Shown one piece after another: positions 5,424 through 59,230 of a stretch of 64,000 nucleotides of DNA. The notes beneath the pieces were generated by a model. That model was not told the origin of the DNA, ran no database searches, and saw only the letters and a program-made list of their open reading frames with translations. The first letter of the stretch is position 1. Each line of letters begins with the position of its first letter. This DNA comes from Octopus vulgaris (taxonomy: Eukaryota). The position numbers and the translations under genes are program-made. Location of the stretch: positions 28,644,001 through 28,708,000 of the forward strand of contig OX597823.1 in the NCBI GenBank assembly GCA_951406725.2, given 5' to 3'.

Positions 5424-5464
5424 CCTCTGAAGAGAACCTTGTAATGTTCGAAAATCCATTAAGG
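5424..5464 (+). ncRNA. Degenerate type-I hammerhead ribozyme motif
   Basis: cct-CTGAAGA-gaac[cttgtaat]gttc-GAAA-atccat-TA-agg; lies just upstream of PLE fragments. Confidence 0.5.
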
Positions 5465-38116: not shown

Positions 38117-38209
38117 TTCTACAGGACTAGTACTGTTTCATTCAAGAGAAATCTTCAGAAATGCTTCCTGAAGATTTCTCTTGAATGAAACAGTACTAGT
38201 CCTGTAGAA
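38117..38209. repeat. Perfect 42-bp inverted repeat whose arms carry a hammerhead core
   Basis: Arms 38117-38158 and 38168-38209; the arm reads CTGAAGA-tttctcttgaat-GAAAC-agtacta-GTC. Confidence 0.85.
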
Positions 38210-38294
38210 CTCCTTCTATATAATAAATTAATTTTACTCTGCTATGTATTGAGTACCTTACTTACTGTGGTTAACCCCGAATCAACCCGGGACC

Positions 38295-38382
<88 letters not shown>

Positions 38383-39621: not shown

Positions 39622-40562
39622 GGAAAAAGTCAAGATAGTAAATGCTAAAATAATTTTATAAAAAACATTTTAGTATCGGTCCCAGTCATTGAGACTTTTT
39701 CAACTGTAAGTATGAAAAACAATTAAATTTTGGAAAAATTAAGAGTAAAGTTCTTTTGAAAAGAATATTTGCATAGTGTTCAAATATAAGTGACGTTTTC
39801 CTTGTTTCTGCCTGTCTCTGTTTCTCTTGCTTACTCTTGTGAGTTCGAGGTCGTTGTGAATTCTTGGTAGGGAAGAAGAAAAAGAAGAAGAAGAAGAAGA
39901 AGAAGAAGAAGAAGAAGAAGAAGAAGAAGAAGAAGAAGAAGAAGAAGAAGAAGAAGAAGGAGGAGGAATAAGAAGGAATGGAGGTAGTGTGAAAGTTGTA
40001 AGGTCTTAAATGTTCAAATGACTTAAAATAGGCAAGTTATGAATTATAGCAGTGATTGGGACTGTTTTTTAATGAATTCTTTGTAATCTCTTGAGTGTAT
40101 CATATTTAATATTTGCGTGTGTATTTGTGTTATTTTAAGGCCGTGGTAGATATGTCGTTTGTCGTAGACGCGTTCAAATGGGGACTGTATTTTGTAATAA
40201 AGAGAGTCACTTTACTAATTCGTTGGCTCCAGGTTGTATCGTCCCTGAATTAGTAGAGGGGCAAAACTTTGAAGCCTGGATTTTTATTATTGGCGCAAAT
40301 GTCTATGTGTTGGCTGAATGCTATGTTTCTGCTTTGAGGAATTTTGATCTGGGATCTGTGCAGAGCCATTCTTTTACGTAGACTGTTTATTGTTTATCCT
40401 ATATATTGCTCTTGACACCCAGAGCAGGTTAGTGCGTATATCAGGTTTTGCGAGGTACATGTGAAGTTGCTTTTCACTGTGAAACGTTGTCCCTGTTTGA
40501 AGGAGAACTCTGATTACTCATTTAAATTGACGCATATCCCACAGTTGGGTCTTCCGCATTTT
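39620..40562 (-). mobile_element. Penelope-like element 3' part (GIY-YIG and 3' region)
   Basis: KCGRPNCGIC...NFTCTSQNLIYALTCSGCQEQYIG..LRKRMALHRSQI; ends at (TA)n. Confidence 0.88.
39671..39706 (-). ncRNA. Decayed U3-A8 hammerhead in the PLE 3' region
   Basis: Minus strand: cag-TTGAAAA-agtc[tcaat]gact-GGGA-ccga-TA-cta; GAAA is mutated. Confidence 0.5.
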
Positions 40563-41069
40563 TTACTGTTGGTATAGGATGTGATGGTTTAAGGTTTTTT
40601 GAGAGATGCGGTGGGTTTGTGGGTGTTTGTAGGGTGGACTGTATGGGAGGTTGTAGGGAGGGTATGTAGTTATAGTGATTATGTTGGTATGGGATGTGAG
40701 GGTTTGGATATTTGTAGGAAATGTGGTAGGATTGTGGGTGTTGGTTGGATGGATGGATTGTATGGAGTTCGTTGGGTGGGGATTATCTGTATAGGTGTGG
40801 GTAGGATACATTGTTTGTTATTGGTGTGAGAGTGGGGAGTATTGAGAAGGAGATAATTCCTAGTGTATGGGGGGGTTCTCGATGCTTCTTGTCGGTGGGA
40901 AAGGAGGATTAGAATGATTAAAGATCCAGGTTTTGAGGTGACTCTTGTTTGAATTTTTTCGGGCAGGAAAGGGCTTTTTGTATGGTTGGGGAAAGTTTTG
41001 TCCCGTGTGGAGGGGGTTTGAAGATTATGTGTGTTTGAGGTATGGTTTGGGGTGGTGTTAATGGGGGAC

Positions 41070-42120
41070 AGTGGGAAACGTGCCAAGGAAATCGACAATA
41101 ATACACTAAAAACCACCCAACACAGTACTACCCAACCTTTAAAATACTTCCATACATTTCCACCCACAACCCCAAAACCATTGAAGCATACACCACAATC
41201 ATACAAAAACTCTCCTTACTGTCCACAGACCCAAAAATGAATAATATTATCAATACACATAACATCCTTAAATGCAAAAGGCAACATAAATCAGTGAAAA
41301 AACTCTTAACAAATGCCAAATTTCACACACCACATCCACCCTCATCAGTTAAAAAATGTGCATGCCCTAACTGTGGTACCTGTCCTTTTCTACTTGATGG
41401 CTATGACTTTACTTTCAAACAAGGAAGAAAGTTTAAAATCGCGACAAACTTCTCTTGTTCCTCCGAGAACCACATTTACGTTCTTACATGCGCGGTTGCC
41501 AACTTAATTATATCAAACAAACGAGCCTTCCTTTACGCAGAAGAGCAGCAGTCCATAAAACAGATAAATCTCCCACAATACCGTCAAATTCCACTCTGTA
41601 GCCACATAGACTCTTGCGCTAGAAATAAAAATCCCAAATTTCATATATTCCCTTTCTATCAATGTAAAGACAGAATCTCTACACAAGAAAAAATTAACAA
41701 GGAGAATCTTTTTATTGAAATATTCCAAACGCTTCTTAATATGGAAACTCCATGGTGACCGTATTACATTTCCTAGCATCCTGTTTGACAAAAAATCCAG
41801 CATTCCAATTTAAGAGTATAAAATCCACAGAATTGTTTCCCCTTATTCACAGGAAGTGGATAACTTCTACAGCATTTCTTGTTTTCACACATAAGCATCA
41901 AACCTTTTGAAACAAAGCACTACACTTGAACACATGCATCCTAATCCTCCAAAGAAGTTTTTCCATGGAATAATATTGAACTCTAAAAACATACAATGTA
42001 TTGGTATACTTATTTATTAATTTTTGAATATATTTATTATTTTTTTAAAAAAAACATTGTAAATTTCTTTTTTCCCCTTTCTCAATTTAAAAGAAAGTTC
42101 CCCCCTCCAAATCTAGGTTT
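41070..42120 (+). mobile_element. Penelope-like element 3' part (GIY-YIG)
   Basis: ILPYISTHNP..KCACPNCGTC..NFSCSSENHIYVLTC..SHIDSC..FHIFPFYQ; ends at (TA)n. Confidence 0.88.
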
Positions 42121-42559: not shown

Positions 42560-43554
42560 GTTCATAGCGACATTCACAGAAATAGACTTTCCCTCATAAA
42601 CATACCTGTTCACAATTATATACAGCTATATTAAGAAATTCTTTACTCTGAAGGCCACCGCTGATTTGCCTATTTGTGTACGAGCAAAGATATTGATCTG
42701 ACTAATGTAAGTTTAACGTATAATTTCTCCGAAAACCCGTTATTCATTTCTCTTTCTGTAGATTTAAGTATTTTTCTCGGTTAATACTGTAAGAAAATAG
42801 TATATTAGTAAACTTACTTGTTAAATGTGTCCAAGGTTTCAAGCGGTACCAACGTCAAATAATGATGCATTCAAAGCAGGCACTGTTCTAGGTGCTCAAT
42901 AGCAGGATATTCGTTGAAATAAATAAGATATTTGACGGTAACCATCGAAATATATTGAGTGAAACATCACATAGGCGCAGGAGTGGTTGTGTGGTATTAG
43001 CCATTAAGATGTTATATCTGGTTCGGCAGGGATTTTACCCGGTTAACCGTTTCGACATATTCCTACATACTGGGCCATCTGAAATCGCAGTCAAACTTTT
43101 GTGTGTACCTCAACCCGTTGAGAGTGATGTTTGTTTATTTCCCTCCCCATAATGCCACCCTCTGTGCACAATTGATCAGCATGTCCAGTCTCAGTAAATT
43201 TCGCAGAAAAATATTAAGGTTATATCATAAAATAGAATCCATGTGACCATTTACATGAAGATATAAAAGTTACAGCTAAAAATAAATCGCTATGTGTATT
43301 TGCATGCAAAAAGCCTATTGACTTTATAAAACCCCTGTTCAGGCGCAATTATCGATTTTCTGTCACTGCCATGAGCCTCGCGCACGCATCAATTTTCATC
43401 AAAATCGGACAAATACAAATCGCTGCCAACTGAGCATTATCGTGTTTTCGAAATATTCCCACCTTATTTGAACTTTGCTTGACAACATCACTTGATAGCA
43501 GATACAGGTGTGTTTGCGTCCCAGTAAATTAGCGGTTCGGCAGGACGTGCAACA

Positions 43555-44530
43555 GAAATCGACATAGAAACTTTGAGAAATATTCAACACAGCAACACAT
43601 CATCCCCGAAAATACTGCCTTGCATATCCACATACAACCCCAGAAACAAAGAAGCCTTCACCATCATCACCCAGAAGTTACCAATACTTCATAAAGACCC
43701 CAAATTAAAGGAAATTCTAAACATACATAAAATCATTAAAAGCTACAAACAACCTAAATCACTAAAAAAGATTCTCATAAAGGCAAAATTGTTTTCTGAA
43801 ATTATGGATGCAAAAGTAACAAATGTTGTAGACCAAACTGCGCAACATGCCCAAACCTTCTAGAAGGATCAGAATTCTTCTTCAAAAGGGGACGAAAATT
43901 CAAGATCAAATCTAATTTTACTTGTGCTTCATAAAACATAATTTATGTCATAAGATGCTTGGGCTGCCACCAAAACTACGTAGGGTCCATGGGATTATCA
44001 CTCAGATGCAGATGCACTCTTCCTCGACAACAGATTCCATTTCCAGAATACAGAATGATACGCTTTAGTGAGCATATTGAGAAATGCGCAAAGAAACTAC
44101 TACCACAATTTTTTATCTTTCCATTCTATCAATGTGCTATTGGAACACCAACACAAATTAGATTAAACAAGGAAACATTCTTCATTGAAAAATATAAGCC
44201 TAAACTTAACCATCCTAACATTCTTATACAGAGAAACTCATCTCATTGAAAAAAAGAAAAAATATAAAGTGATTATCTCCCTTATACCGGAAGAAATCCC
44301 TGATTACCTCCCCCGCCTGGAACTCTTCTTTGCACTAGATAACGAAGACATGACACTATGTAGGTAAAGAAATTTGAGAAATTTGAAAAGTTTACACGAA
44401 ACCGGTTATTTCTCCCAAAACTATGTTACTATACACAAAATTTTATAACATTTCTCTAACATAACGACTTAAATATATTCTTTAACCTTATAAAACAAGC
44501 CTTCTGAAGTTTTTTCACTCTTTTCTATTT
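43555..44530 (+). mobile_element. Penelope-like element 3' part (GIY-YIG and HHR)
   Basis: LPCISTYNPRN..CRPNCATC..NIIYVIRCLGCHQNYVG..KETFFIEKYKPKLN; ends at (TA)n. Confidence 0.88.
44376..44414 (+). ncRNA. Minimal hammerhead, U3-A8 variant
   Basis: gagaaat-TTGAAAA-gt[ttac]ac-GAAA-ccgg-TT-atttctc; 7-bp stem I, palindromic ACCGGT. Confidence 0.75.
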
Positions 44531-46877: not shown

Positions 46878-47092
46878 AGGTAAAGAATTCAAGTTAGTTG
46901 AAGAAAAGAGGAGGAAAATTCAGGATATGTAAAAGAAGAACAGGTTGTCACTAGAACTAGTGACAACTTGTTCTTCTTTTACATATTTAATCTAAATAGA
47001 ACTAGTGACATAGAACTAGTGGCAACCTGTTCTTCTTTTACATATCCTGAATTTACCTCCTCTTTTCTTCAACTAACTTGAATTCTTTACCT
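46878..47092. repeat. Nested fold-back inverted repeat
   Basis: ~77-bp arms 46878-46954 and 47016-47092, plus an inner 30-bp hairpin at 46925-46986. Confidence 0.85.
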
Positions 47093-48182
47093 TTACAATA
47101 GAATATATAATATTCTATTGTAACTATATGAGAGACCTTATATATCGGTCTCCATATGAACAACTAGTTGCACCATCATTTTATGTATATAATTTATCTT
47201 GTGGACCACGAAAGGTTGTTTTTCCTATGGCGAAAACTAATAATTTCTTCAGTCTGGAATCTAGTATCATGGCGATTTAGTGTTAGGTGTTGGTATACAG
47301 TTATTAATATGATTTCTATCAAGGGACTTCAGTAAATAGACTAAATCTAAGAGGAAAACTATCACCAATTTGTTAGTTTCTTTCGGTGTCTCTACGATAT
47401 TTTGCATACCTTAGTTGGATATTGTTTGATAATAAATGTTATCTAGTTGCTTTCCAAGCTCTTACGATGATGTATTGAGATAATATATGTTGCAGAGTTG
47501 GTTGTTTGTGTACTGATATCGTTCTTAGATAAAAGTTAGAGAGGATTCCCTTTTAATCGTGAAGACATTATCTGTTCTTATATGTGCGTTTCTCGCCCAA
47601 ACTGTTTTATTAATTTTCAAAATAAATTTTTAAGTCGCTATAAATTTGTTTTTATTGCCGCATAATCATTTTCAATATATCATTTCAATATCATTTCAAT
47701 ATCATTTCAATATATACGTCTTTAATCGTGACAACAAATATATCACATTTTTATTCTTAGATATTTTTCTTTCTCGTTATTTCCTAATATAAATCATGCA
47801 AATTTTGTTTAAGTTTCAAATGAAAAACTTATTAAGATAGGTGTTATGTATTTCTATTTTATTCTTGTCGATGTAATTCATGATGTTTACCAACTATATT
47901 TTTAATAGTTGTATATCTTAGTTCTTTTTTAACAACTGGACAGTAGTCTTTTTTCTCTTTTGCTCATATTTTATTTTTAACTGGAGGTTACTTCCAAGGT
48001 TGAATAAGAAAACTTGCAGTGGTGGTGGAGGTGGGGAGTTGGGGAAATGTTGCAAGTTTCAACGAAATATTTTTCCTGGGTAAGAAGAGCAACATTTTCT
48101 TTGTACAGTTTGCTTTACTTATTTATATTGACCTGTTTAATTTGGTATGAAAGGGATCACTATCTATCTATTTATCTATCTA

Positions 48183-58197: not shown

Positions 58198-58251
<54 letters not shown>

Positions 58252-58324
58252 ATAGCACCAGGTGGTGCTATTAAGTTAGACATGGCCTGGGCCAATAATG
58301 GCCGAAACCTATCAAAGTATCAGA

Positions 58325-58373
<49 letters not shown>

Positions 58374-58382
58374 TATATATAT

Positions 58383-58768
58383 AAAAATAATAGTTATCGC
58401 CATACTAATATGGCATTCTTATAAAAATAAGAAAAATGCTGTCCGCTTATTAGCTCCATGAGGCCATCGCCTTAGTGGATGTATTCCACCGAAACTAGGT
58501 AAATAAAACCATCGAACAGAGATTGTCGGAAGCGACACCTACTGGCTGGCTACGCTGCATTGAAAAGGGGCAATACCCCGAAACGCGTCTGTAGCTGCCG
58601 GTCAAGTAGTGTGGAGCGACTGACCTCCCTTGTTCGAAGGTTATATGGATACAGTTTGTGTATCAAATAGCTAACTTAAGGCGATGGCCTCATGGAGCTA
58701 ATAAGCGGACAGCATTTTTCTTATTTTTATAAGAATGCCATATTAGTATGGCGATAACTATTATTTTT
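58383..58768. repeat. Perfect 92-bp inverted arms enclosing a ~200-bp hammerhead-bearing core
   Basis: Arms 58383-58474 and 58677-58768; next to (TA)n. Confidence 0.9.
58554..58595 (+). ncRNA. Minimal hammerhead, U3-A8 variant
   Basis: gctgca-TTGAAAA-gggg[caata]cccc-GAAA-cgcg-TC-tgtagc; 6-bp stem I, GUC site, palindromic ACGCGT. Confidence 0.85.
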
Positions 58769-58962
58769 CGGGAACGCTGCCGCTGTTCTCTTTTAGAGAG
58801 ACTTAGTTATTTTAATATTTCTATTATATATATATATATATATATATATATTAATATATATATATATATATATAGACATACATATATTTTTCGTTTTTCC
58901 TGTTTCAGCTCAGAGCTGTGGCCATGCTGATACACCACCGTATATATGTATGTATGTATCTA

Positions 58963-59001
<39 letters not shown>

Positions 59002-59057
59002 CGGAGATGTACTCGCATAGCAAGTAATTTGATCTGAGATCGTGTGCTGAAACGAAA

Positions 59058-59229
59058 ACAATTGCAGCGTGGAAGGTGTTTATAAGCCATTTAAGAAACA
59101 CACACAAGCCGTTCGATTCACTTCAACATTTTAAATTTAAATTTAAAATTAAACTTAAATGTTGAAGTGAATCGAACGGCTTTTGTGTGTTTCTTAAATG
59201 GCTTATAAACACCTTCCACGCTGCAATTG

Positions 59230-59230
<1 letters not shown>
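59058..59230. repeat. Near-perfect 74-bp inverted repeat with an AT-rich spacer
   Basis: Arms 59058-59131 and 59157-59230, one mismatch. Confidence 0.9.

Follow-up and report, generated by a model that had tools for sequence, protein, structure and literature searches.

Introduction

Metazoan non-LTR retrozymes, as far as the available parts of the two accounts go (PMC7229834; bioRxiv 10.64898/2026.07.22.740005), are non-coding tandem repeats with units of 170–400 nt (350–390 nt in mussel) that carry one type I hammerhead ribozyme with a C3–G8 core per unit, adopt a self-paired circular fold and are dispersed as monomers to multimers in genomes that also contain Penelope-like elements (PLEs); both their expression and their circles have been observed. 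The retrozyme model is that of PMC7229834, and the same two sources propose, from co-occurrence and from similarity to PLE pseudo-LTRs (pLTRs), that PLEs mobilise retrozymes. Insertions of endonuclease-bearing PLEs consist of a head-to-head inverted, 5′-truncated copy with a one-sided tail of 30–40 nt, lie at AT-rich or (TA)n targets with short duplications (PMC3846280, Arkhipova 2013; PMC8557442, Craig 2021) and use two internal start sites; a PLE protein cleaves AT-rich DNA on both strands and extends each of them, the two start sites on the RNA bounding the tail (PMC11167929, Frangieh 2024). In the sections available to us, the mechanism behind the inverted-plus-tail layout and the enzyme that moves animal retrozymes are described as open questions (PMC8557442, PMC7229834, bioRxiv 10.64898/2026.07.22.740005). 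Covariation of core positions 3 and 8 to U3–A8 has been reported, again in partly available texts, for several natural hammerheads and is cited as active in vitro (Perreault 2011, PMC3088659), with ~1,300 matches in the Cercyon PLEs of Schistosoma mansoni (Cervera and de la Peña 2014, PMC4209133).

Here we describe an octopus repeat that touches on each of these systems. Our main reading, to which we assign a probability of roughly 0.78, is that a young, non-coding 362-bp repeat with a U3–A8 hammerhead, likely a retrozyme, inserted head to head in a TA tract after its RNA was reverse-transcribed twice, once from each DNA end, by a borrowed Penelope-like enzyme. The unit resembles the metazoan retrozymes in length, tandem and dispersed arrangement, GC content (42 % here), hammerhead type, circular fold and the company of PLEs; it differs in its U3–A8 core, which Rfam misses, and is known from genomic sequence. 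Insertion ends, tail and head-to-head arms are measured here and are not described in the available retrozyme texts. With PLE insertions it shares inversion, 5′ truncation, one-sided tail, target type, short duplications and two internal start sites, whereas it has no ORF, its tail is longer (~60 nt) and its arms go round a unit that is circularly permuted; the use of one of each start site per insertion, and of a common template, is measured here and is not stated in the parts available of PMC3846280, PMC8557442 and PMC11167929. Its ribozyme has the 3–8 covariation and palindromic stem III for dimers of the natural U3–A8 hammerheads (PMC3088659, PMC4209133) and, unlike the minimal U3–A8 motif of PLEs, is of canonical size, with an extended 6-bp stem I and a 4-bp stem II, in a young retrozyme. 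Among the papers listed for retrozymes, hammerheads and cephalopod Penelope elements, none is on this octopus family, paywalled papers and supplements being places that may hold cephalopod retrozymes. U3–A8 hammerheads, retrozymes and inverted PLE insertions are each already published; what we add is a quantitative argument for two primings on a single template. The family's youth, small size and hundreds of loci allow every insertion to be read from one end to the other. A direct in vitro test could draw on it for a 362-nt RNA, two start sites and a (TA)n target.

Anatomy of the insertion

The insertion lies in a 64,000-nt stretch of Octopus vulgaris DNA, the whole of which we call the window (assembly GCA_951406725.2, contig OX597823.1, 28,644,001–28,708,000, forward strand) and in which all positions below are counted unless a locus or the unit is named. 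It occupies 58383–58827 and is flanked by (TA)n target tracts at 58325–58382 and 58828–58875. Alignment to a 362-bp reference unit, taken from locus L025, resolves it into an inverted arm on the minus strand (58383–58474, unit ~204–294), ending at a fixed end site 'a' (unit 284–296), and a direct arm on the plus strand (58474–58827, unit 1–354), ending at a second fixed end site 'b' (unit 348–355); the two meet head to head at 58474 with a 1-nt overlap. The direct arm differs from the commonest unit at two positions, and the inverted arm carries both differences.

A preliminary description of this DNA had reported perfect 92-bp inverted arms, and 58383–58474 and 58677–58768 are indeed exact reverse complements of that length, with a 202-nt loop between them. 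The stretch named there as the right arm (58677–58768, plus strand) is unit 204–295 within the direct arm, and the right boundary placed at 58768 was 59 bp short, as the insertion runs on to 58827 through a one-sided tail of ~60 nt between the two end sites (58769–58827, plus strand). The 92-bp arms are not the ends of an element; they likely represent sequence that was, by chance, included in both cDNAs. The same description proposed a transcript folded into a long hairpin whose loop contains the ribozyme; this holds as a by-product of this one insertion and not as the working unit, which is the 362-nt repeat.

A 362-bp repeat family

Searching the genome (2.8 Gb, 227 contigs) with the inverted sequence as the query gave at least 172 matches among the best 40 of 975 candidates, many of them at 362-bp spacing. 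The unit has a 362-bp period, a GC content of 41.7 % and a longest ATG-initiated ORF of 38 codons, and in circular form it folds at z = −8.2 relative to 40 shuffles. Near-identical copies occur on ~30 contigs, with cores on both strands and a median divergence of 0.7 % for the family, and two sister subfamilies are ~86 % and 80 % identical to it. From 52 cores in 32 loci on C1, this subfamily is estimated to have roughly 500 loci. Units are often in tandem, and one array (L089) exceeds seven units. In that array (L089, 937–3914), the units have one private stem II change in common and are preceded by a direct partial copy. Among the records listed, none that contains the unit is RNA; a 392-nt contig from a run presumed to be RNA equals one unit plus 30 nt and is as compatible with a circle as with tandem DNA.

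Tandem units within the ~170–400-nt range, a type I hammerhead, GC below 45 %, dispersal and the lack of coding capacity and LTRs together place the repeat with non-LTR retrozymes. It encodes neither the reverse transcriptase (RT) nor the GIY-YIG endonuclease of an autonomous PLE and is non-autonomous. We conclude that it is likely a young element of the non-LTR retrozyme type, in which both the core variant and the insertion layout are already in print. The suggestion that the locus is an inverted pseudo-LTR product of a PLE was correct as to the layout, which is of the Penelope type with a tail. The pLTR stump of a coding PLE was ruled out as an identity for the unit, since complete monomers of it recur in tandem and contain no ORF above 38 codons.

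A U3–A8 hammerhead at the tip of a long rod

Pattern and predicted fold place a type I hammerhead at 58554–58595 on the plus strand. Predicted stem I pairs 58554–58559 with 58590–58595 (six pairs, including one G–U) and continues through an internal loop into a long outer helix, the ribozyme motif sitting at the tip of a rod predicted at 58507–58642 (plus strand), with compensatory changes between subfamilies. The core UUGAAAA lies at 58560–58566 (U3 at 58560, A8 at 58565) and is followed by stem II (58567–58579, four G–C pairs and a 5-nt loop) and GAAA (58580–58583). Stem III has 2 bp as a monomer and lies inside the palindrome ACGCGU (58583–58588), and the GUC site has its predicted cut after 58589. 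Core positions 3–9, GAAA, an NUH site and three stems in order are thus all in place, with the U3–A8 covariation. Computed pair probabilities for stems I and II are 0.94–1.0 in the circular unit and the armed transcript alike. The preliminary reading of the core as U3–A8, a covariation already in print (PMC3088659 and PMC4209133, as available), is borne out, as are its GC-rich stem II, GUC site and 6-bp stem I in the predicted fold.

Rfam returned no hammerhead match in 58250–58800 at E values up to 10, and no hammerhead family is among the best 150 of 263 matches listed for the whole window; searches fixed on CUGAnGA miss whole families of retrozymes and PLEs. An exact core pattern that left positions 3, 7 and 8 free had 787 matches genome-wide, compared with 0 for a reversed-pattern control, and position 3 is U in all 787; a looser pattern, which includes the sister subfamilies, had 1,768. 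Given these counts and the z of the circular fold, the core is not a chance occurrence. Among 269 cores from the fetched loci, a count that includes overlapping fetches, U3 and A8 are invariant (269/269), while position 7 is A in 228, U in 25 and C in 16. Stem III reads ACGCGUC in 236 of these, ACAUGUC in 23 and otherwise in 10; the swap from ACGCGU to ACAUGU keeps the palindrome, with self-duplex energies of −7.5 and −4.6 kcal/mol.

In an alignment of 12 units, both partners are changed in 7 of 75 pairs, among them pairs in stems I and II, and 98.3 % of cells are paired in the covariation test, compared with 31–43 % in slid controls. As only three related subfamilies are involved, we take this covariation as support for the fold rather than proof; the comparison supports selection on the ribozyme structure and core. 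Of 244 arms, four have their stop precisely at the base that follows the predicted cut, a site chosen beforehand (0.58 expected, p = 0.003), and 13 stop at unit positions 113–120 (4.6 expected). A stronger peak of arm stops, at unit 156–165, is unrelated to the cut site. In the available text of PMC11167929, hammerhead cleavage is dispensable for insertion in vitro, and according to the accessible part of bioRxiv 10.64898/2026.07.22.740005, eight of nine tested Xenopus retrozyme dimers did not cleave.

A degenerate second hammerhead-like motif, a 5-bp hairpin followed by GAAAC, is conserved at 58475–58500 (plus strand). It had been described as truncated; the motif is there, although truncation did not make it, as a UUGAAAA-like word precedes it in whole units. 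Its hairpin (58475–58489) is invariant in the 12 aligned units, and GAAAC is altered to GTAAC in one subfamily, which makes a working ribozyme unlikely. In the circular unit, the motif adjoins site 'b' on its 3′ side. RNA located 3′ of the start site is required according to the available text of PMC11167929, an analogy by which the motif may be an RT binding site. In a search for an snRNA-type promoter, the unit's best match to a sequence common to U1 and U2 genes at about −57 fell in the motif, with a score equalled by 7.8 % of 500 shuffles and exceeded by that of a minus-strand site; a weakly predicted transcription start lies near unit 58. At L283–L309, that sequence stands ~57 bases upstream of U1 genes and most U2 genes, some U2 copies being without it, and it is likely the proximal sequence element of this animal.

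Insertions end at two fixed sites

The loci were grouped into set A (27 loci from the inverted query, and biased), set B (63 loci chosen by the core alone on contigs C1–C2) and set C (98 loci picked for having an end at unit 293–294). Duplicate fetches (L024, L026, L028 and L052) were dropped, L090 lies outside the three sets, and L100 (bad alignment) and L128 (a twin of L127) were left out of the stop, allele, fold-back and arm-length counts.

Ends cluster at 'a' and 'b', ~60 nt apart. In set B, 45 of 63 loci are cleanly two-armed, all of them head to head, with 41 pairing 'a' with 'b' and four having one untyped end; none of the 45 is a + a or b + b. The pairing recurs in 77 of 79 two-armed loci of set C, and in 16 of 24 distinct two-armed loci of the sister subfamilies, where one is b + b and seven have an untyped end. 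Exceptions to the rule are L271, the b + b locus, from the third subfamily, and L108, which holds a + a pieces. At a 15-nt threshold, 17/63 loci of set B and 14/98 of set C are one-armed and six loci are complex, all of which speaks against double priming; in a few of the one-armed loci, a second arm, short or decayed, is visible in the flank. The flanks of single-armed loci were not seen to join PLE coding sequence.

A TA-like 12-nt flank adjoins 257 of the 284 typed ends in sets B and C, and non-repeat targets have duplications of ~9–15 bp, judged by eye (L009, L010, L071, L045 and L189). The last of these is a tiny two-armed insertion reached via a loose-end motif that led to nothing else. 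Head-to-head inversion, one-sided tail and AT-rich target, the layout of PLE-mobilised insertions, are found together. Where the arms join directly, microhomology of at least 2 nt is present in 82 of 98 joints (16 % expected) and spans 2–7 nt; 47 other joints carry fillers, and seven junctions are symmetric fold-backs. A junction at unit ~30/158 recurs in L007, L008, L010, L013, L014 and L017, all from the biased set A, and at this junction the two sides of the outer RNA stem give a long imperfect microhomology.

Two cDNAs probably copied from one template

The two arms of one insertion agree at 138 of 155 informative comparisons over 16 polymorphic sites, compared with 15 % (maximum 29 %) for shuffled partners. 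Rare variants are common to both arms in 29 of 173 cases (0.2 % when shuffled) and differ between them in 144, as later mutation predicts. Later gene conversion between the arms could also produce such likeness. Successive tandem units within one arm behave similarly, with alleles in common in 143/165 comparisons and rare variants in 46/210. Arms longer than 362 bp number 119 of 290, and of 208 passes over the cut site, 204 go on; since arms exceed one unit and run through the cut site, the main template is something other than the cut linear monomer. The best model is that of two target-primed reverse transcriptions on one RNA, circular or multimeric and likely a circle.

Under our main reading, tandem copies would be transcribed, and two hammerheads would pair via their palindromic stem III and excise monomers to be ligated into circles, as anatomy and known retrozymes suggest. 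A PLE protein with RT and GIY-YIG domains would then make a double-strand cut in AT-rich DNA, staggered by ~9–15 bp if the few duplications seen by eye at non-repeat targets are a guide. One target end would prime near unit 354 and the other near 291–294 on the same RNA, a step that rests on the observed fixed ends, their pairing and the alleles common to both arms. The resulting cDNAs are seen to be of variable length, often continuing beyond the cut site and on around the unit, and their ends to be joined by 2–7-nt microhomology or a short filler. In L1 twin priming, a single RNA is likewise primed by both target strands, and the outcome is a head-to-head inversion with a microhomology join; there, the internal site at which the second primer anneals varies and the two halves have no overlap, whereas the octopus sites are fixed and used by nearly every two-armed copy, and its halves overlap in sequence.

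The template need not be a circle. Double priming could have taken place on a multimeric transcript that a tandem locus produced and that was left uncut, with the hammerhead slow or a passenger, an account that we consider unlikely while giving it appreciable weight. Passage through the cut site in nearly every case is in its favour, and RNA left unprocessed is the predominant substrate in the available text of PMC11167929; against it, tandem units agree as the two arms do, as if one monomer had been re-read, the core and structure are conserved with compensatory changes, and arrays of more than seven units exist. A single priming followed by fold-back onto the new cDNA, with an endonuclease trimming the hairpin to leave the tail, would explain the common alleles trivially and finds precedent, in the parts of the texts available, in the self-priming proposed in PMC3846280 and the endonuclease-mediated tail resolution of PMC8557442. 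Fold-back requires one arm to lie within the span of the other; among 116 loci of sets B and C, this geometry fits 73, the window copy included, and is impossible in 43, exactly the share predicted for independent arm lengths (41.8 ± 4.5), the lengths being weakly correlated (rho 0.23, p = 0.012). In L134, L135, L161 and L178, moreover, the b-arm is tail sequence alone. These results favour two independent primings on one template and contradict fold-back as the general route, which makes it improbable as an account of the family, though it may apply to a minority of loci, the seven symmetric junctions being in its favour.

The preliminary description had also offered a MITE-like unit with the ribozyme as cargo, which would be a DNA element with 92-bp terminal inverted repeats, and had asked whether the core always travels with these arms. 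It does not: inverted-repeat length is 0–842 bp (median 141), only 4 of 116 loci fall within 85–100 bp, and 120 of 124 junction pairs differ from one another. Perfect arms and TA-rich targets would suit such an element, while the arms are internal to the unit, one end has a 60-nt overhang and units occur in tandem. As repeat length and junctions vary, the layout is that of a PLE inverted truncated copy with a one-sided tail; a MITE is rejected for a family without fixed terminal inverted repeats, and we give it next to no credence. That the palindrome arose in assembly or from fold-back reads is scarcely more credible, given that 150 cleanly two-armed loci have this layout, their ends fixed and their junctions varied, that targets appear duplicated, and that one contig from a separate run contains an opposite-strand joint.

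Extending the double-priming reading, we tentatively propose, at a little short of even odds, that Penelope-type insertion is obligate twin priming, in which a dimeric RT/endonuclease would start from both DNA ends at two fixed sites of a single RNA and, on a 362-nt circle excised by the hammerhead, two enzymes would follow one another round and write tandem arrays both ways. If true, this would explain the inverted pLTR and tail of PLEs, long without explanation, and provide genomic proof of animal retrozyme circles as the transposition template, with the U3–A8 ribozyme common to the parasite and its helper clade.

Candidate helper elements

A GIY-YIG search returned at least 148 matches among the best 150 of 6,136 candidates, many of them in 781-codon open frames. 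A 765-aa protein has a GIY-YIG match and an RVT_1 score of 28.9 bits, just below the 29.6 cut-off. The 3′ repeat of intact PLEs carries a minimal U3–A8 hammerhead, found in 6 of 8 wider regions and 19 of 30 GIY-YIG loci; the U3–A8 motif is thus common in the PLE clade of this genome, and a capable enzyme is present. L276 is a head-to-head intact PLE with a tail of ~34 nt on one end (~60 nt in the unit). The unit showed no significant similarity to 38 PLE loci, comprising 30 of the 148 GIY-YIG matches, which gave only one neighbouring third-subfamily copy, and the eight wider regions (best E value 0.1). A Penelope-like enzyme is a candidate helper for the 362-bp unit, the intact family showing no significant sequence link to it. 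The young intact PLE family at L277, 120–3784 (also L275, L276, L281 and L282), has a long 3′ region, and a 466-aa ORF with no Pfam match lies upstream of and overlaps the 765-aa RT and GIY-YIG ORF.

Other features of the window

A second head-to-head insertion lies between (TA)n tracts at 59000–59230, with arms of at least 47 bp and a one-sided tail of ~58 nt; the Rfam microRNA matches here fall short of the gathering score and reflect no more than the hairpin. Adjoining the left TA tract, 58250–58325 holds a tiny inverted insertion with a tail and a decayed hammerhead-like stem plus GAAAC. Inverted insertions of other families, also with one-sided tails, are present at 38117–38310 and 46878–47160 (perfect arms of 42 and 37 bp, respectively). 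PLE RT/endonuclease fragments at 40172–40651, 41141–41740 and 43528–44210 are 47–53 % identical to the intact protein, two of the three pointing away from each other around 40.9 kb. Minimal hammerhead-like motifs of the CUGAnGA type occur at 5427, 29188 and 48584.
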